From positions 1-46,694 of IMG/VR virus record IMGVR_UViG_3300037424_000783: a DNA stretch of 46,694 bases, one strand, 5' to 3'. Both the position numbers and the translations under genes were made by a program. The stretch's first letter is position 1. Each line of letters begins with the position of its first letter. Of this stretch, positions 3,889 through 44,679 are shown piece by piece. The notes under the pieces were generated by a model. That model saw only the letters and a program-made list of their open reading frames with translations. It had not been told where the DNA came from and ran no database searches. This DNA is from a virus (lineage: Duplodnaviria; Caudoviricetes).

Positions 3889-4113
3889 TTATCGGGTTGT
3901 TTCTGATACAATTCTTCTCGCGCACACTTCGAATTCTGAACCAAATCCCCATTTTGCTAGAGCGGTAATAATCTTATTCACGACTTCTCCATTCACTTCT
4001 GCCGAATCTTTCCAGAGTGCGCGATCAATCTTTTTTGCCAACTCACGATCCGGCATAGTGACCAACTCGGACAAAAGATAACAACCCAATTGTGATGTTT
4101 TAATATGCTCCAT
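3889..4113 (-). CDS. Hypothetical protein
   Basis: GGAAGGA SD before MEHIKTSQ; start refined. Confidence 0.6.
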   Translation of the reverse strand: MEHIKTSQLGCYLLSELVTMPDRELAKKIDRALWKDSAEVNGEVVNKIITALAKWGFGSEFEVCARRIVSETTR

Positions 4114-4117
4114 TGAT

Positions 4118-4561
4118 TTAATCCTTCCTGCCATACTTGGCTTTGTGATTTCGGTTTTTTGCCCGTTTTGCCTTTTTGTGCGACTTTTCTCTCTCTTGAC
4201 GCACGACAGGATCAAGTGACGCCAGATGGACTTCGGCTCTGGTAGCCAAGAGACACGGCATTTTGCGAGGACGTGTTGCGGTTGCTCTAGCCTTTTTCAG
4301 ACCTGTTCCGTCTAACGTCTGGACGAATTTTGCATCATCTCGTCTTGGTCTTTTGATTGAAAAGCCGAAATTGCCATCCCCAGCTTTCATTGAAAGAGGA
4401 TCAGTCTTTCGCGCTTTGCGTACATCGATTGCGCGGATCGTATATTCCCCCACGGAAAGCCCATTCATTTTTGCGAACTTACGATCTCTTCCCTGAAGAA
4501 CATTGAAAGGGCGCATCCGTTGGATTCTGCGCGCCTCTTCTGACAGATACGACTTGTCCAT
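4118..4561 (-). CDS. Very basic (Arg/Lys-rich) hypothetical protein, possible nucleic-acid binder
   Basis: AAGGGG SD; K/R-rich throughout with a basic C-tail; first gene downstream of the large non-coding region. Confidence 0.7.
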   Translation of the reverse strand: MDKSYLSEEARRIQRMRPFNVLQGRDRKFAKMNGLSVGEYTIRAIDVRKARKTDPLSMKAGDGNFGFSIKRPRRDDAKFVQTLDGTGLKKARATATRPRKMPCLLATRAEVHLASLDPVVRQEREKSHKKAKRAKNRNHKAKYGRKD

Positions 4562-4599
4562 ACGAATCCCCTTTCTTGAAAAATGCCAGCGGACCTTGA

Positions 4600-5900
4600 A
4601 AAATGTCGGACCCGCGAGCCGCAGTGCAATTAAGGATAGTTACCCGGAATAGAGTAACCGTATCCGGGCGAATTCTATTACCTTGCCTGTTTCCGGGATT
4701 TCACCGACAGCGCAGATAAGCACCCGCTACTAACTATCCATAACCTATTTCGGGATTCGAACCCGAACCCACGGAAATGGCAGAGTGGCTTAATCCTCTT
4801 TTCCGTTATGCCCAATTTCACACCTTATAGGTTAAGCGCTATTTTAGGGCGCTACTCTAGAACTATGGCACTAACGATCTCTTGTGCTAGACCTAATAGT
4901 GTCAATATCAAGGTTCATTAAGGACAGAGCTTCCCGAAAGATAGATATGACTTGAGCATAGCAAGCCGAAACACTAAGCGAACCCATAAAACTATCGGAC
5001 TCGCAGTTCGAATTCGGACCATACTCTACCTTTGCTGTCCCGCGCTACATTTATCGTACCAGCACTTCAAGTCCCAATAACCACCAGGATTATTGAACCT
5101 TGACGCCGCATCTCCAGCCCATAATAACCGATCCCGCTATCGGAGCGCAACGACCAAACGACCACGGATAAGATAGTCGCCGACCCGATAATAACGCACT
5201 CCGAATTGTGGCGCAATAGTTTAATTGTGGACTATTGGAGATGGAATATAACTCACGCGATTTTCGGCCCGCCTAGAGATAAAAATAGGCCCTATAATAA
5301 TTAGCGGGACTACCGATAAATCGGAGTTTGGCCGCATTATAGGACCATCATTCAACTCTTTGATTTTCGGACTTCCTTATGCGCTTTCCCTAATCGGTTT
5401 GTTCTCGGACTTTACTTGACGCACTATCAATGCGCTTTCCAAGCCTTGAGCCGAGACCGATAACGGTATTCACATACTTCGTCCAATAACCGAAGACGGT
5501 CGATAACCTAACGTACTGATAGGCATGAGGGGGAGACTCAGACCGATAACCTTGACTAATCCTCAGACCCTGAGCGCGATCCCCGCACCCAATCAGACCC
5601 TACAAGCGGACTAGGAGCATTATTCGGACCTATCCGATCCTCAGCGGTCAGCCCGATAACTAATCGGACACCCGCTACACAGGCGCGAAGCCCCTCCAGA
5701 CACCGACAGGGACTAGCTTATGTTAGTCCTATAATTCCAGAAGTTATCTGGACTCTCGATGTAAGGCGAGACACGTCCTATATGCCAGAGGTCTGGGCAT
5801 ACGCACCCATCCAATTATAGGACGCATCTCGGCTGACACCGATAATGTGTATAACGGTTATTCAAGCGATACCGTAAAACGCTATAAGACCAAGCGCCAT
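4600..5900 (-). ncRNA. Large ORF-free, extensively base-paired region; candidate large ncRNA or ncRNA cluster
   Basis: No ORF >=60 aa in six frames; long-range helices 4634-4642/4731-4739, 4908-4917/5094-5103, 4922-4927/5035-5040, 5109-5116/5236-5243, 5403-5408/5451-5456; strand inferred from promoters and the tRNA-like element. Confidence 0.5.
4742..4832 (-). tRNA. tRNA-like element with enlarged anticodon arm (possible pseudo-tRNA; Gly-GCC-like loop)
   Basis: Acceptor ACCTATA/AATAGGT (one mismatch), D arm TGTG/CATA, stem CGGAA/TTCCG enclosing 24 nt, canonical T arm TCGGG-TTCGAAT-CCCGA; no encoded CCA. Confidence 0.55.
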
Positions 5901-5907
5901 GATCGGA

Positions 5908-6222
5908 CTAAGAGCCGACCTTTGCGAACGCCGACCGAATACTCGCGGTCGAAGCGCGCTGTCCGAGAACCGCTTGAGCGATCGTCGAAGCGTTATCGGA
6001 ACCGAAATTGAGGTTCGACGGCGGAGTATATCCCTCTCCGTTCTCGGCGAGAATCTTCAAGGCGTCGATAACCTCTTGCGCGTCGAGCATCGACTGCTGA
6101 GGATTCTTGGACGCAATGATCGCCTCGACGAACTTCCGGTTCGTCTTGTAGCGCGGACCCGTCTTGAGGAACAGACCCTGGACATCGACTCCCGACTTCG
6201 GTTGGGTGGTGGTGGTACTCAT
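5908..6222 (-). CDS. Hypothetical early protein with GC-rich codon usage
   Basis: GGAG SD; directly downstream of strong promoters; third codon positions mostly C/G. Confidence 0.8.
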   Translation of the reverse strand: MSTTTTQPKSGVDVQGLFLKTGPRYKTNRKFVEAIIASKNPQQSMLDAQEVIDALKILAENGEGYTPPSNLNFGSDNASTIAQAVLGQRASTASIRSAFAKVGS

Positions 6223-6366
6223 AGGAGACTCCTATAATAGAACCTCACCATCCCGACCACAGGACCATCCCATAATCGGGATGGCGCTTGCAAGTCGTTA
6301 TGTCTGATAACTTCCGCCTTTACGGGTATCGCTTTGCACGATAGGATACCTCGAATTGACTATCCA

Positions 6367-6395
6367 ATTATACTACACTTTCGCGGGGAAGTCAA
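6367..6395 (-). promoter_or_regulatory. sigma70-type early promoter
   Basis: TTGACT-17 nt-TATAAT with A-tract upstream. Confidence 0.85.
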
Positions 6396-6437
6396 GCGCT
6401 TTTTTGCGCTTTTCTTTTTTCTCCCTGCGATATACTG

Positions 6438-6466
6438 ATTCTAGGCGCGCACCAAGCGGAAGTCAA
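6438..6466 (-). promoter_or_regulatory. sigma70-type early promoter
   Basis: TTGACT-17 nt-TAGAAT with AT-rich upstream region. Confidence 0.75.
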
Positions 6467-6684
6467 GCTTTTGGGCTAAATATTTTTATTATTGGCATAA
6501 TCCTATAAGTTCCTATTGGAACGCTTCCAAATTGGGTTATTATCAGTATTGTCCTATAAAAGAGAGGTCCGATAGTAATTTTCTTTTTAGTCCGGTAATA
6601 ATAAAAAGTGCGCAGGTTGCCCCTTCTCGCATTGTTTTATAAGACCTCTGCCCGAAACGTCCTTCTTTTTTAATTGTATACTAA

Positions 6685-6713
6685 ATTATACGATACGAAA
6701 CCAGGAAAGTCAA
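6685..6713 (-). promoter_or_regulatory. sigma70-type early promoter
   Basis: TTGACT-17 nt-TATAAT with A/T tract upstream. Confidence 0.85.
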
Positions 6714-6924
6714 GCCCGATAATAAAAATTTTTTCACGTCCGATAAACTCGATAATCCAACGTCCGATAACCGCAGTGTTGTAGTGCGCAAAATTATCGG
6801 ACGCTTTTCAGTCCGATAATTCTTCATGTTATCGGCAGTGCCTGGTCCGATAATGTGTCGTCGGCGCAAAAATTATAGGACGAGGGCAGCGCTTCCCTCC
6901 GTCCCATAATCTTTTAGTTATCGG

Positions 6925-7245
6925 TTATCCACAGACTTGTCCGATAACATCGGCGGCGCGAATATCGGCGTTTGGCCGTTTTCGGACTTGCACCTTATCG
7001 GAATCCTGCTCGTCAACGTCCGAGAATGTAATCCCGCCAAGCCATCCGTCCGATAAAAGAGTCTCTTTCAATCTCTCTACGGCTCTTGTATCGGACATTG
7101 CCATCGCCGTAGTCCCATAAAACCTATGGTGGAATGGTCCGATAATGGTTGCGACCCACATTTTACCGGACCTGCTCAAGCCATACTTCAATGTGGAACG
7201 TTTTGCCAATTTGTTCAGCATAGCTTTACGAAAGGAAAGTGCCAT
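6925..7245 (-). CDS. Hypothetical early protein
   Basis: GGAGG SD; 106 aa; contains several motif copies. Confidence 0.75.
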   Translation of the reverse strand: MALSFRKAMLNKLAKRSTLKYGLSRSGKMWVATIIGPFHHRFYGTTAMAMSDTRAVERLKETLLSDGWLGGITFSDVDEQDSDKVQVRKRPNADIRAADVIGQVCG

Positions 7246-7298
7246 AACTAACCTCCTTATAAGACTAACCTCGTCTAGTTACCGGAACATCCGATAAC

Positions 7299-7568
7299 TC
7301 ATGCTACGTCCTCCCACGTCCGATAATCGCCGTCAAGTGTCTCTGTAACTTGTACTCCGTCCCAATATGTTTTGGTTATCGTACCGTCTTTGTTATCGGT
7401 CACACAGACGAACACGTCCGATAATTGTATGTTCCTTCCATCGTCCAATAATCCGAATTCATTCTCCCATACGTCCAATAACTCGAACGATTCCGTCTCA
7501 CCGAACAGTCCGATAACGTCTCCCACCTTGACTTGCATGGTCCTATTAACTCTCGCCATATACAACAT
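7299..7568 (-). CDS. Acidic hypothetical early protein
   Basis: GGAG-TTATAGGAC-ATG; D/E-rich. Confidence 0.7.
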   Translation of the reverse strand: MLYMARVNRTMQVKVGDVIGLFGETESFELLDVWENEFGLLDDGRNIQLSDVFVCVTDNKDGTITKTYWDGVQVTETLDGDYRTWEDVA

Positions 7569-7571
7569 GTC

Positions 7572-7661
7572 CTATAACTCCTTCAAGTCTCGAATGGCCG
7601 ATAACAACTTGATAGTTCCTATAACCATCATCAGGCCACATGTTCCGATAAGTGCGATCAT
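7572..7661 (-). CDS. 29-aa hydrophobic peptide (not in ORF track)
   Basis: GGAGG-TTATCGG-ATG; MIALIGTCGLMMVIGTIKLLSAIRDLKEL. Confidence 0.55.
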   Translation of the reverse strand: MIALIGTCGLMMVIGTIKLLSAIRDLKEL

Positions 7662-7672
7662 CCGATAACCTC

Positions 7673-7876
7673 CTAGTACCATCGTCCGATAATCTGTACC
7701 AACCGTCTCTCTTTATCGGTCGTTTCATTTATCGGAAGTTCTTGTATTTTATCGACCCTCCGCTGCAAGTCATCTATTATAAGACCGGCATCGAATATCG
7801 GGTCATCATAATTATCGGCTATATCTCCAAGCCCAGCGTCCGATAATTCTTTCAGGATTGAACTCTTAAGGTCCAT
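7673..7876 (-). CDS. Acidic hypothetical early protein
   Basis: GGAGG SD before MDLKSSILK; start refined. Confidence 0.7.
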   Translation of the reverse strand: MDLKSSILKELSDAGLGDIADNYDDPIFDAGLIIDDLQRRVDKIQELPINETTDKERRLVQIIGRWY

Positions 7877-7884
7877 ATAACCTC

Positions 7885-8010
7885 CTATCGTCGGCTCCGT
7901 CCGATATGTCTGCGGCCATATCCATTGCCAGCGACCGATAATGCGTTGCAAAACATTTTGATTGCGAGTCCGATAATCACCAATGCGCCGATCGTCAAAA
8001 TAGGTTCCAT
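7885..8010 (-). CDS. 41-aa membrane peptide
   Basis: AAGGGAG SD before MEPILTIGALVIIGLAIKM; first ORF after the 8039-8067 promoter. Confidence 0.6.
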   Translation of the reverse strand: MEPILTIGALVIIGLAIKMFCNALSVAGNGYGRRHIGRSRR

Positions 8011-8038
8011 TTTATTTCTCCCTTTCTTTGATACCCAA

Positions 8039-8067
8039 AGTATAGGATAGGTCGGAGGGGAAAGCAA
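8039..8067 (-). promoter_or_regulatory. sigma70-type early promoter
   Basis: TTGCTT-17 nt-TATACT with T-rich upstream region. Confidence 0.7.
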
Positions 8068-8337
8068 ATATAAAAGAAAAATATTTTATTAGTCCTATAA
8101 CCAAAGCCAGGTCGCAATATATATAGTCCTATAAGTAATGCCAGGTCCAGGGTGGATAGTCTGATAAGTTGTGGTCCGATAGCCTTTAGCGTCCAGCTAA
8201 AGAATAGTCCGATAAATGTATTATGTTATAGGTATCTAAATAGTCCGATAAATAGATATGGTTATAGGATCATTGAAGGTCCGATAAGGGTATGCCAGTT
8301 TTATACCGATAATGTTTTTGTTATCGGAACGTCCGAA

Positions 8338-8351
8338 AACCCCACGGGGTT
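8338..8351. other. Palindrome at the compositional boundary; candidate genome end or packaging site
   Basis: AACCCC-AC-GGGGTT right after the last motif copy; lies at the divergence of transcription. Confidence 0.3.
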
Positions 8352-8597
8352 CACGCGCACCCGGATTCTCAAATCCAACCAAAGTTAGAATCAAAGAATA
8401 CTAATCTATGGCGTCATGCATCGTTCCGCGTTGCGGAACAAGGGTATGCCCATTATAAAAATGAAAAAGTAAAGTGCTCGCTGATCTACAAAATGTTACT
8501 AAAAAAATCTGGGGCTTAATGTAAATTTAATAAGATATTGGGTATAATGGTATGAGTGGATTGTTAACTAAGTAATTTTTTAAAAAGGAGAAATGTT

Positions 8598-34424: not shown

Positions 34425-34480
34425 GTACTATATTGTAGGCTGACAAGGATTATAAGGTAATATGGTTATTGGAGCATAAA

Positions 34481-35731
34481 GTGAATCAAAAGAAAATAAA
34501 TGTAAATTTGGCTATAAAGTTATATAGAGATGAAAAAAATACACTGGAAGCTGTTTCTAAAATAGTCGGATGCTCCGTTGGTACATTAGTTACAAGATTG
34601 AGAGAATACGGTATAACTATAAGATCTTCTGGGGAGTTTAGACAAAAAGCTACTTTGGAACAATTAAAACATGATTATGAAACACTTGGATTATCCACTA
34701 TAGAAATAGCTAAAAAATACAATATGAATGAGTCTTCTGTATACGGAAGATTAAAAGATAATGGCGTTCAAATTAGAACAAGAAAAGAAGCTGTTAACAG
34801 ACAAATACCTTTATCAGAACATCCAAAAATTTGTGATCTTTACATAAATGATAAAACACAAAACTGCGGTAAAATAGCTAAATTATATAGTGTTCATAAA
34901 ACCACTATAGCTAATATACTCAGGAATAATGGTATAATATTGGAAAAATCTATTGGCGAAAGAAATCCATCATTTAAAGGTGGTATAACGCCGCTGCATA
35001 CAAGGATACGACATTGCGAAAAAGGAGAATTTTGGAAAAGAGCGTGTTTAGAAAGAGATGAATATAAATGTAAAATAACCGGAGAAACTAAAGATTTACA
35101 AGTTCATCATTTCCCAAGAACATTTTCTGAAATATTCGAAGATTTTTTGAGATTATATCCAGATTTAAGACCAATAGATAATTCCGATCAATTGTTTGAA
35201 TTATCACAAAATTATGAACCTTTTTGGGATATAAGTAATGGAATAACAGTTTGTAACTCAGTACATAAAAGATTGCATACAAATAATGGTATAACGGACG
35301 AAGAAATAATAGCCCTACATAAACAAGGATGGTCGTGCGAAAAGATATCTAAATATTTTGGTAAGTCTAAGGGATTTGCTAGATCAAGATTATTATCTTT
35401 AGGGATAAAATTAAGGGATGTAGGCTATTATAATGAACAAAGGAATACAATCACGGAAGATATTAGTAAAAGTGTATTAGAGGCTTATATAGATAATAAA
35501 ACAACAAGAAGTATCTGCAAAAAATTTAATATAAGCAATGGAACTTTATATAGAATATTAGAGAAAAATAACATTGTTCCAGGAAATAGAAAATACGACC
35601 AAAGAAGTGATGCCATAAAACAAGCCGAAAGAGTCATAGAATTAAATGCCGCAGGCGTAACTATCGAAGAAATAGCTAAAATATACGAAGTTAGCGACAC
35701 CACCATAAGGAATATTTTAAAAATCAATTAA
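34481..35731 (+). CDS. Multi-HTH protein with central HNH-like nuclease (homing endonuclease-like)
   Basis: GGAG SD plus GTG; about six HTH repeats; GERNPSFKGG, ERDEYKCKITG, LQVHH, NGITVC..VHKRLH. Confidence 0.8.
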   Translation: MNQKKINVNLAIKLYRDEKNTLEAVSKIVGCSVGTLVTRLREYGITIRSSGEFRQKATLEQLKHDYETLGLSTIEIAKKYNMNESSVYGRLKDNGVQIRTRKEAVNRQIPLSEHPKICDLYINDKTQNCGKIAKLYSVHKTTIANILRNNGIILEKSIGERNPSFKGGITPLHTRIRHCEKGEFWKRACLERDEYKCKITGETKDLQVHHFPRTFSEIFEDFLRLYPDLRPIDNSDQLFELSQNYEPFWDISNGITVCNSVHKRLHTNNGITDEEIIALHKQGWSCEKISKYFGKSKGFARSRLLSLGIKLRDVGYYNEQRNTITEDISKSVLEAYIDNKTTRSICKKFNISNGTLYRILEKNNIVPGNRKYDQRSDAIKQAERVIELNAAGVTIEEIAKIYEVSDTTIRNILKIN

Positions 35732-42600: not shown

Positions 42601-44002
42601 TAGCCATAGTCTTGGATTGAAAAGTAACGGTTCAATTGTATCGTGGGGGAGAAATAATTTTGGACAATTAAATGTTCCCGCACCCAATACTAATTTTATA
42701 GCTGTTGAGGCGGGCGGGAATCATAGTCTAGGATTAAAATCTGATGGATCAATAGTTGCATGGGGAGATAATTCATTAGGACAATGCACTGTTCCATCTG
42801 GAAATAGTGGATACATAGCTATTTCTGCTGGATCGTTATATAGTTTAGGTCTTAAGGCTGATGGATCTATTGTTGGATGGGGGTATAATGGTTTTGGTCA
42901 GATCACAATTCCTACCCCAAATAATAACTTTATAGCTATATCGGCGGGGAATAATCATGTACTTGGTCTAAAGACTGATGGATCAATAGTCGCATGGGGC
43001 GATAATTTCGAGGGAGAAATTGATGTTCCATTGCCTAATGACAATTTTACTAAAATATCAGCAGGTGCAGAGCATAGCCTTGGGCTTAAAAATGATGGTT
43101 CTATAATTGGTTGGGGAAAAAGTTCCGCAGGACAAATAACTATACCGTCACCAAACACAAGATTTATAGGAGTTGAGGCCGGAGCAAATCATAGCTTGGG
43201 CATATCTGCGCCCATTATTTCATTATTTATTAACGGAATGGACTTACAAGTTGATAGTATAGATTTATCAATAAGTGGTTCTCAAATATTCACTTATAAT
43301 AACAATATTGATTTGTTTATTAGATCAACCGATATCGTTACTAGTGGAATAGACTTAATAATTTTTGGTCCAATTTTTATAAATGACTCAATAGATTTAT
43401 TCATAAAAGTAATTGAAGTTAATAACTTGGATTTATATATAAAAGGTATACAAATACCTAATAATATAGCGTGTCCGTCTTTAGATTTAACTTTACCAAT
43501 ACAAATAAGTAGTGATTTGATTGAAATCTATCAATCTAGAATAGATTCGCTGATAAATCAATTGGGAAAAAATGTATTACTCGAATTTAATCCAATAATT
43601 CAGCCGTGTACAAATTGTGAATTTGACGTTATTTCTGGTAAATCTAAGGGTATTTATAGAACTGGTGGATCAATTCCTTTTGCCAGAGGTCAAAAGTGTC
43701 CATATTGCAAGGGTGCTGGATTTTTAGAACAATCAGTTTATAAGTGTATAAAATGTTTGACACAATGGAATCCAAAAGATGCAGAAAATTATGGAATTTC
43801 TGTAGATGATCCGGCCAGTATAGTAAGACTTAAAGGATTTTTGACAGACGGAGATGATATGGTAAGGGCCAAGGCTGCAATAACTAATCATGACATAGAA
43901 AATGTAACAAAATTCAGAGTTAAATTAATAAGGGGTCCGGTTATTGTTGGGTTAAGAGAATCAAGATACATAATAACATTCTGGAAATTATTGGATAGTT
44001 AA
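39626..44002 (+). CDS. Giant modular virion protein: GVGFxP repeats, YWTD-like propeller, DLFIxG shaft, RCC1 propeller, C-terminal copy of the upstream neck protein
   Basis: KIYWID..RSNLDGS repeats; ~14-aa DLFIxG repeats; about seven AGxxHSLGLKxDGSIVAWG repeats; C-terminal ~175 aa paralogous to 38959..39549. Confidence 0.85.
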   Translation: MIKVASIRTGIPITATQQTITIPNIGNPKAAIFILNRCPSGTTIASSAAFNIGFANDTNQLFHAINCEDNVGTSDTHRMSYDSLCMVMLNSTDGTEDCRASFVEWVEDGVTIDWVIAPSDDFTLTTILFAGDVSELNTYIGTFTTPEALNSGVIVSGVGFEPDQIIGIGGGGPNGFDLSTRAGACFSFGMCDNNNGIIKQGSINYCNLDNLADTSIKSLVSQTYFARDFSGDFGAVELGDFNSSGFTATARISGVGMTMGFLALKYNGNVKHDVGFISSPSFATGIQTISGVGFGPQFISELQTTCTAYDTQTTNVDAGSMGIATFGSGLTIPKSFQMNHNIRSQTGAATSNEDSRTFDNTTFLRRSDESLSIAITSTLNSVYYDGYSKNFSSNMGNRRWINLLIGNPISSSGIDFYINGYNIDTNNLDLFIVGHESLIYSRSDVYYAYTNDSNGLIKKSDLDFNNITILTSGAPATSGESDHLDIDEINDKLYFVQDNPSTDLLRRYDLNTGTIENLTSGQISHISLDSIHNRIYGLNFLNDAVLYTDLNGQNGIVITSGSPFSLNPIDTDIDLINSKIYWIDREVGHKAVVRSNLDGSNIENVITGLSGSLRSLAVDHENNQIFWGLDTPFSGATLLKATTSGTNIQIITGSGLGFKGLDIDYINQRLYALDEQLGQIVRVGLIDNSIDSFQFPLSGVEALNNIAIDQRIYKSLFVHGFETINDNCNLFIWGHQSSTDDVNFFINGHILLNGDIDLFVSGITGATLFNSDVDLFVNGHVLFNNNIDLFIRGYATFSTDIDLYINGHQSFNNDIDLFIFGIGFITNDITLFISSINTSANGIDLFIYGVDSNSNDIDLMIVGSQSLSNNLHLIILGKDSNSDDCDLFVHGKDSITNSIDLIIVGEESFNNECNLFIYGHVSINTTILAWGNNVNGQIDVPIPNSDFVLVKAYNHNLGIKTNGSITAWGRNDFGQSDVPEPNTDFIDVATGSSHSLGLKSNGSIVSWGRNNFGQLNVPAPNTNFIAVEAGGNHSLGLKSDGSIVAWGDNSLGQCTVPSGNSGYIAISAGSLYSLGLKADGSIVGWGYNGFGQITIPTPNNNFIAISAGNNHVLGLKTDGSIVAWGDNFEGEIDVPLPNDNFTKISAGAEHSLGLKNDGSIIGWGKSSAGQITIPSPNTRFIGVEAGANHSLGISAPIISLFINGMDLQVDSIDLSISGSQIFTYNNNIDLFIRSTDIVTSGIDLIIFGPIFINDSIDLFIKVIEVNNLDLYIKGIQIPNNIACPSLDLTLPIQISSDLIEIYQSRIDSLINQLGKNVLLEFNPIIQPCTNCEFDVISGKSKGIYRTGGSIPFARGQKCPYCKGAGFLEQSVYKCIKCLTQWNPKDAENYGISVDDPASIVRLKGFLTDGDDMVRAKAAITNHDIENVTKFRVKLIRGPVIVGLRESRYIITFWKLLDS

Positions 44003-44679
44003 TGATAATAAAGATTGATTTACCGGCAGGATTCGATAAGCAATTAAGCAATGGAGTATCTTCCAATATGATAAAAATATTAGACAATAAATTGGCTATT
44101 AGTGCACAAAAAATATTTGAAAAAATAGGAGATTATATAGCTAGCGTTTTTGAAAAAACGGATGTTGTTAGATCTTTAAGGGGCAAGGGAAGCGTTGATC
44201 TTCCTGCGCATTTTGGGTTATCTGATTCATTGGCTAATGAATTAGTTGATGGTATGGTAAATATAATAATAAATTCTGTATCACTAGGTTCTATAATTAA
44301 ACCAAATGGCGGATCTTTAACAATCAAAGCCGTTAAAACAGATTGGGAAAGTTATCTATCTCTTCCGGGAGCACGGTATATTTCTAAACCATCTAATGCT
44401 ACTATTCCCGTATTGGCATGGATGCTTATTGATCCCGGTATAGATATAGGGCAAGCTGCTTATCAAATAGTATTCGATAATTCTCCTGGATTTAATGCAA
44501 AAGTATCTAGAAGTGGTAGAGCGATAATGAAATCTCTTGAATCCTTGGGGGGTGGAGGAGGATACGTACTTCCTAGTATAATTAGTAAATCTGGTGGAGA
44601 AAATTTTATTGAATTTGCAATAGGACAACCAAATGTAGCACAAAAAGCTGCTGAAATTTTAATAGAGGGGATAATATAA
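44002..44679 (+). CDS. Neck/tail-completion protein candidate
   Basis: Position; SRSGRAIM motif. Confidence 0.55.
   Translation: MIIKIDLPAGFDKQLSNGVSSNMIKILDNKLAISAQKIFEKIGDYIASVFEKTDVVRSLRGKGSVDLPAHFGLSDSLANELVDGMVNIIINSVSLGSIIKPNGGSLTIKAVKTDWESYLSLPGARYISKPSNATIPVLAWMLIDPGIDIGQAAYQIVFDNSPGFNAKVSRSGRAIMKSLESLGGGGGYVLPSIISKSGGENFIEFAIGQPNVAQKAAEILIEGII

Follow-up and report, generated by a model that had tools for sequence, protein, structure and literature searches.

What reads a dense, directional array of short DNA words that runs straight through the genes of a phage? This question is raised by the IMG/VR record IMGVR_UViG_3300037424_000783, a 46.7-kb piece (46,694 nucleotides, hereafter the window) representing about 28% of the genome of a tailed phage and carrying terminase, capsid, sigma-factor and nucleotide-metabolism genes. 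Here we describe a field of half-sites near its left end whose word is identical to the inner 9 bp of one arm, the XerC arm, of dif, the chromosomal site of the Xer recombinases. We trace this field through relatives and unrelated phages, and weigh what it may be for.

The motif field and its word

Sites within one mismatch of GTCCGATAA occur 69 times in the window, compared with 9.75 ± 2.74 in 100 shuffled versions (largest 16). The field (Table 1) holds 64 of them and the rest of the window five, in line with an initial annotation made from the letters alone, which had described a motif field in this region. That annotation had described the field through the word GTCCGATA; the 19 plus-strand and three minus-strand copies that it counted are all exact, and none lies in the window outside the field. 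Exact 9-mers of GTCCGATAA number 16 on the plus strand and one on the minus strand of the window. The abrupt right-hand stop was likewise recovered, as the last site ends at position 8339. The proposed polarity holds to the right of 6.3 kb, where plus-strand sites prevail by 38 to 11, but not at 5.0-6.0 kb, where orientation is mixed (six plus, nine minus). Sequence variation was correctly placed at position 5 but is wider than described, as positions 1, 2, 4, 7 and 9 vary too; C3 and A8 are nearly invariant across 11 fields compared. Helical phasing of the sites was not evident in the window taken alone.

The word is found inside minus-strand genes led by a Shine-Dalgarno (SD) sequence, where it is read in three frames (LSD, IIG/VIG and YRT). 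The window is not a chimera, as the relative G004 is collinear and shares 47 of the 64 sites. Between these two genomes, motif columns are 93% identical versus 83% outside them, and many of the differences exchange one tolerated variant for another. Because the word spans three reading frames and is better conserved than its surroundings, selection appears to act on the DNA and not on the protein, as had been proposed. The field is located at the minimum of the cumulative GC skew. The field and the sequence flanking it on the left (4001-8000) have a G+C content of 46-50%, compared with roughly 27-39% in most of the remaining window.

The left 11-mer of dif is named the XerC site, and published left arms include GTCCGATAA in Myxococcus and Anaeromyxobacter, GTCCCATAA in Geobacter and Desulfovibrio, and GTCCTATAA in Syntrophus (PMC2731167). 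These deltaproteobacterial arms are the same three sequences that form the commonest position-5 variants of the window. The combination GTCCGATAA-N6-TTATGTNAA occurs in about 4,900 GTDB stretches, a figure estimated from 2 of 64 parts, with one match in each of 80 loci listed. The taxa concerned include Acidobacteria, deltaproteobacteria, Planctomycetota, sphingomonads and Bacillota, among others, and the flanks of the matches have a dif-like profile. The outer two bases of the arm are conserved in dif (mostly A at -2), while the same positions are free in the phage fields. When 151 genomes were sampled from the phylum to which G040 belongs, a loose dif pattern had matches in only 28 of them, and GTCCGATAA was its most frequent recognisable left arm (7 of 43 matches). 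No XerD arm at a 6-bp spacer was found in the window field; the nearest candidate, at a 5-bp spacer, is unconserved and is probably not a functional core, because it was not kept in G004.

Arrays in relatives and in unrelated phages

Thirteen IMG/VR relatives have terL genes 59-87% identical to that of the window, and six of these genomes are 96-100% complete with lengths of 160-180 kb. Relatives possess analogous arrays: the field is present in all 13 and is polar at roughly 3:1. Ten of them have 47-115 sites and G015 has 34, while the fields of G011 and G012 are truncated. A GGGG run follows 3-6 bp past the last plus-strand site in all 13 genomes that reach beyond the edge (window included), and about 50 bp beyond it are conserved across the family in a search that required the G-run. 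Across 11 fields, same-direction sites were spaced 24-27 bp apart 96 times versus 33.8 in jittered controls and 9-15 bp apart five times versus 63.7, contrasts that are overstated as these fields are related and not independent samples. Same-direction spacings under 16 bp are avoided. Face-to-face pairs at a gap of 5-7 bp, the spacing used in recombination, were absent from the 11 fields, with 5.9 in jittered controls. In one relative (L517:1-200, G012), the field edge has grown into a 23-bp tandem repeat containing the word, and the contig begins within it. Eight of 11 family contigs over 70 kb end at most 5 kb from the field, at non-homologous positions. Distant capsid relatives (G215-G219, 17-86% complete) had neither a field nor a match to PF00589, the tyrosine recombinase family. 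No cultured relatives were found; the best terL matches in a phage collection were 23-33% identical, among 25 matches listed. In G003, G006, G007, G010 and G012, the terL match is split into two or three pieces inside long frames, a pattern that an intein or similar insertion would be expected to give.

A single Xer-like recombinase of about 295 amino acids (aa) is encoded by all six near-complete relatives and four fragments, with no PF00589/Xer match in G012 (84% complete, field present) or in four smaller fragments. Residues R148, K172, H237, R240, H263 and Y272, which we take to be the catalytic positions of the recombinase family, are invariant in all eight aligned phage proteins. Scores of the phage Xer against the XerC and XerD models are equal and fall short of the cut-off in each case. 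In its recognition helix, the R-(A/S)-V pattern of XerC proteins is present and the tryptophan of most aligned XerD proteins is missing. Its best matches in the phage collection are about 30-33% identical. The gene is placed among middle/replication genes, where it forms a fixed cassette together with genes for ThyX-like, ClpP-like and sigma-like proteins (L249, L250; G003, G001), and a BrxL-like protease is a core gene near the cassette in G007. A further site, upstream of the Xer gene, was rejected because it lies in coding sequence and is not general. Exactly one two-armed site, consisting of the XerC arm, 6 bp and TTA(T/C)GC-N-AG-N-(C/T), is present in 8 of 14 family fields, where its location is homologous. 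The window and G004 have no such core, and the matching stretch has decayed. Outside the family, nine arrays each contain one core of a XerC arm, 6 bp and TTATG (L270, L272, L291, L293, L297, L304, L309, L314 and L360).

A triple-word scan of IMG/VR identified 107 stretches. One control word had two triple matches, although it contains CTAG and is a weak control, while the reversed word had 71; because of these control counts, the raw figure of 107 alone is no evidence. In-frame coding repeats explained 69 of the 71 reversed-word matches versus 22 of the 107 real ones. Among array-carrying records at least 90% complete and without a match to this terL, seven of nine have no PF00589 match, and we mapped the arrays in five of these seven. 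In unrelated phages without a recombinase, the arrays lie mostly in non-coding leaders. The T7-like G032 (43675-44178) and G020 (1744-2925) have XerC-arm arrays between terL and the early genes, directly behind terL and adjoining G-runs, with neither a two-armed core nor a recombinase. In T7-type genomes, the ends are located in this region between terL and the early genes. The same word is common to phages with three unrelated terminase families. Four array phages outside the family share DUF7178/phrog_3842 (L574:4230-4790, L567:16407-17027, L569:12472-13275 and G020:41162-41623), which was not found in G005, G006, G007 or G009.

Other phage contigs contain dense arrays of the opposite arm, TTATGTHAA (L408, L367, L449, L472 in G202, L486 in G203 and L484 in G214), and only 1 of 15 such XerD-arm records has a PF00589 match. 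These arrays are located between the terL arm and the opposite arm of the genome in G200, G202 and G203. In G202, G203 and G214, the centre-facing side of the XerD arm points away from small early-type genes, as it does for the XerC arm in the window. Since unrelated phages use either arm, a chance likeness to dif is unlikely and a host reader is favoured. A host Xer is also pointed to because the arrays occur in complete phages that have unrelated terminases and no tyrosine recombinase. We infer that Xer is very probably the reader of the word.

The initial annotation had proposed a binding carpet for a phage protein. The polar, DNA-level carpet at the start of the early arm is borne out by reading frames, conservation, spacing, the 13 relatives and the unrelated phages. 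The reader that it envisaged, an unknown phage protein such as TerS or a helix-turn-helix (HTH) protein, is not, as the word is the XerC arm of dif and recurs in phages with unrelated terminases and no tyrosine recombinase; a Xer of its own is also encoded by the 160-180 kb family. Additions made here are the phage Xer found throughout the family, the rules of site spacing, the single two-armed core, the conservation of the edge, the terminal position of the arrays in T7-like phages and the counterparts built from the XerD arm.

Elements and genes around the field

Three strong sigma-70 promoter matches within the field point leftwards, away from the sharp edge, an arrangement that fits the head of an early arm (Table 1). 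The edge element is a candidate genome end or terminase site. A hairpin lies between two of the strong promoter matches and the SD sequence of the 104-aa gene, and its fold signal stays at a z of about -6 with the motifs shuffled. The 104-aa and 106-aa early proteins were considered as readers and are unsupported: fold searches returned no match for the former (best Z 3.4) and no significant match for the latter (none at E ≤ 0.001), and an Atlas search with the 104-aa protein gave only leads under 0.9. A multi-HTH protein (34469-35731, plus strand), present in all six near-complete relatives, is an alternative reader candidate; it has a weak match, below cut-off, to the model of the CRISPR repeat-binding protein Cbp1. 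A tRNA T-arm-like stretch at about 4740-4830 (minus strand), in which ARAGORN calls no tRNA, is possibly a relic.

Table 1. Coordinates of the field and of associated features in the window.
Feature	Position	Strand	Details
Field of XerC-arm-like half-sites	4992..8339	44 on +, 20 on -	64 sites; GTCCGATAA, at most 1 mismatch
Polar part of field	6302..8339	38 + : 11 -	dif-centre-facing side of arm toward right edge, away from early transcription
Dense leader	8068..8339	+	9 sites; upstream of outermost early promoter-like match
Edge element	8340..8395	+	GGGG run 6 bp past last site, then ~50 bp family-conserved
Dif-like two-armed match	8207..8231	+	sole one in field; 5-bp spacer, inner arm TTATG; absent from G004
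Sigma-70-type promoter match	6685..6713	-	11/12; inside field
Sigma-70-type promoter match	6367..6395	-	11/12
Sigma-70-type promoter match	6466-6438	-	10/12
Hairpin	6246..6286	-	19 pairs; leader of 104-aa gene; fold signal independent of motif
104-aa early gene	5908..6222	-	in 12/13 relatives; all-helical model
106-aa early gene	6925..7245	-	9 sites within; in 9/13 relatives
89-aa early gene	7299..7568	-	SD-led; 7 sites in three frames
Lone half-site GTCCCATAA	24200..24208	-	between divergent methyltransferase and sigma-factor/terminase operons; same place in 7/7 aligned genomes

A predicted Xer coat, its rivals and known systems

We propose, as a plausible but tentative reading, that the array of lone XerC-type half-sites is the predicted foothold of a Xer-coated, non-recombining lattice on the DNA end that probably enters the cell first. 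Host XerC, which would be present at injection, would bind the half-sites first, perhaps followed later by the phage's own Xer. Monomers, arranged head to tail at steps of about 25 bp, would cover 3.3 kb, and the resulting lattice would obstruct host machines that load on the incoming DNA or travel along it. This scheme takes the G-run edge to be the physical left end, which we consider probable. If Xer is indeed the reader and the G-run marks that end, we lean slightly, by analogy, towards protection from end-loading nucleases or SMC-type translocases as the purpose. The precedent lies in the reports that XerD binds outside dif without XerC (PMC11840125, PMC9226527) and that an artificial array of XerD sites (XDS) blocks Smc-ScpAB (PMC11840125). 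A broader generalisation is possible, although we regard it as somewhat doubtful: many unrelated phages would have independently paved their first-injected end with host dif half-sites, of the XerC or the XerD arm. Host Xer would then dress the end as a 'self terminus' and keep off nucleases and SMC-type defences, and the 160-180 kb family would have extended the coat to 3-5 kb and gained a Xer of its own to take over the lattice.

Several observations weigh against a coat of this kind. SMC unloading is reported for XerD, not XerC, and a coat could hinder the strong promoters and the genes that the field covers. There is no pile-up of contig ends at the field edge among 31 metagenome edges. 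The phage Xer, whose gene lies outside the window, groups with XerD on a long branch in a quick tree. Its catalytic residues are intact, which favours recombination, as does the single two-armed site with a 6-bp spacer within the array of eight relatives and of a second, unrelated phage group. The yield of the reversed-word control and the relatedness of the fields behind the spacing contrasts also count on this side.

In the main rival reading, the field would load Xer proteins for recombination at a single core, either circularising the injected genome between terminal repeats or resolving replicated multimers, with host XerC and the phage Xer as a substitute for XerD. The core stands at a homologous place in the family, unrelated arrays, too, most often have a 6-bp spacer (nine examples), the intact phage Xer leans to XerD, and Xer-like resolvases are reported to be frequent on plasmid-prophages (PMC8026635). 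However, the window and G004 retain a full field without a core, the T7-like G020 and G032 lack core and recombinase alike, a single core needs no 3-5 kb of half-sites running through genes, and no partition protein was found among 57 scanned core genes, so that we consider recombination a rather unlikely purpose. We find it quite unlikely that the field is a stoperator-like silencer, with which a middle-phase phage Xer shuts the early arm and acts also at the site before the sigma-factor/terminase operon. Arrays in recombinase-less unrelated phages, mostly in non-coding leaders, do not fit this role, and a repressor would have no need of catalytic residues, even though there are three strong promoter matches within the field, site orientation follows transcription as described for stoperators (PMC9283540), the promoter region of the late operon retains one site in seven of seven genomes, and the Xer gene sits among middle/replication genes. 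Silencing can still be a secondary use, in the 160-180 kb family only.

It is very unlikely in our view that TerS or the multi-HTH protein reads the field as a packaging signal or replication origin and that its likeness to dif is due to chance: the same word occurs across three unrelated terminase families, other phages use the opposite dif arm, and the variants equal natural dif arms. These outweigh the position of the field at the GC-skew minimum beside a conserved G-run element, and the presence of the multi-HTH protein in all six relatives with its weak, below-cut-off match to a DNA-repeat-binding family. A decoy role, in which the sites would titrate host XerC and so block chromosome-dimer resolution and cell division during infection, is highly improbable. 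Complete fields do offer 47-115 sites, half-sites only and multiplied by genome replication, but a sink needs no polarity, fixed position at the head of the early arm, sharp edge or spacing rules. That the pattern is an artefact of assembly, a repeat in coding sequence or a structured RNA is barely credible. The stretch 4950-5900 folds with a z of -4.2, yet the relatives are collinear, spacing is irregular, three frames are used, Rfam had no match of note, and the fold signal of 5601-5840, the strongest within 4950-5900, drops from a z of -5.7 to -1.1 after motif shuffling. The signal of 4950-5900 largely depends on inverted motif pairs, and DNA similarity to this stretch was found only in G004; a structured RNA there keeps a small probability. 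The Xer coat, recombination zone, silencer, packaging or origin signal and XerC titration can coexist.

On phages, Xer recombinases are known as resolvases or as integration tools, the latter in integrative mobile elements exploiting Xer (IMEX). Convergent arrays of lone dif arms at the early-arm head of lytic-looking phages, T7-like ones included, would be an apparently undescribed use of a core chromosome protein. A Xer-coated field may serve as a counter-defence or as an aid to entry that acts purely in cis and needs no gene. The identical arm is found in a cultured host, Myxococcus xanthus, and with a named reader this opens binding, protection and recombination to direct tests. Which arm a phage uses could also help to narrow its host.

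How does the field compare with known systems? With dif it shares the inner 9 bp of the XerC arm and the same natural variants (PMC2731167, PMC3025954, PMC5357621). In contrast to dif, one two-armed 28-bp site per chromosome, the field consists of 64 lone arms with free outer bases and no XerD arm at 6 bp. The XDS of Bacillus subtilis and Staphylococcus aureus are likewise reported as Xer sites outside dif that are used without the partner recombinase, and their arrays block SMC translocation (PMC11840125, PMC9226527). XDS are XerD sites at the chromosome terminus, whereas the field, which has no XerD arm, is a dense polar XerC-arm array on a phage and runs through genes. The XDS-type form (arm, 5-6 bp and TTATG) occurs once in the window, at 8207, and was not kept in G004. 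The attP of IMEX such as TLC-phi is described as a copied XerC arm with a degenerate XerD arm (PMC9226527, PMC5357621), and the single core of eight relatives resembles it, but IMEX have one or two sites for integration at dif and the window is without a two-armed core. No integration was seen here, though no search aimed at integrated copies was made.

The stoperators of cluster A mycobacteriophages, more than 20 asymmetric sites reported to be oriented with transcription (PMC9283540), resemble the field in orientation to the right of 6.3 kb and not in its mixed left part. Unlike the field, which is local, intragenic and matches a host recombinase site, they lie between genes throughout the genome and have a phage HTH repressor as their reader; HTH proteins are present in the window. 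Short-word clusters are also found at phage ends, as in the terminal short repeats of T7. For the injection stop signal of T5, DnaA boxes have been proposed, with a host protein as the proposed reader (bioRxiv 10.1101/866236). Like these end repeats, the field is a short-word cluster in DNA predicted to be injected first, and the array location in G020 and G032 fits a T7-type terminal position, but the field has another word and another predicted reader, many more copies, gene overlap and the same word in unrelated phage families. Partners of parS or iteron systems (ParA/ParB, TubZ, Rep) had no Pfam match in 71 window proteins or in 57 of 92 G007 core genes, many genes being unannotated. FtsK-orienting polar sequences (KOPS) have the word GGGNAGGG, skewed along the genome. 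This is a different word, and its 0-9 copies per strand are similar to a control word and show no skew, so KOPS were rejected. We found no description of Xer half-site arrays in phages in the literature searched, in which most subscription journals were not covered. On the features tested, the field is outside dif, XDS, IMEX attP and stoperators; it would work like XDS and borrows from dif.

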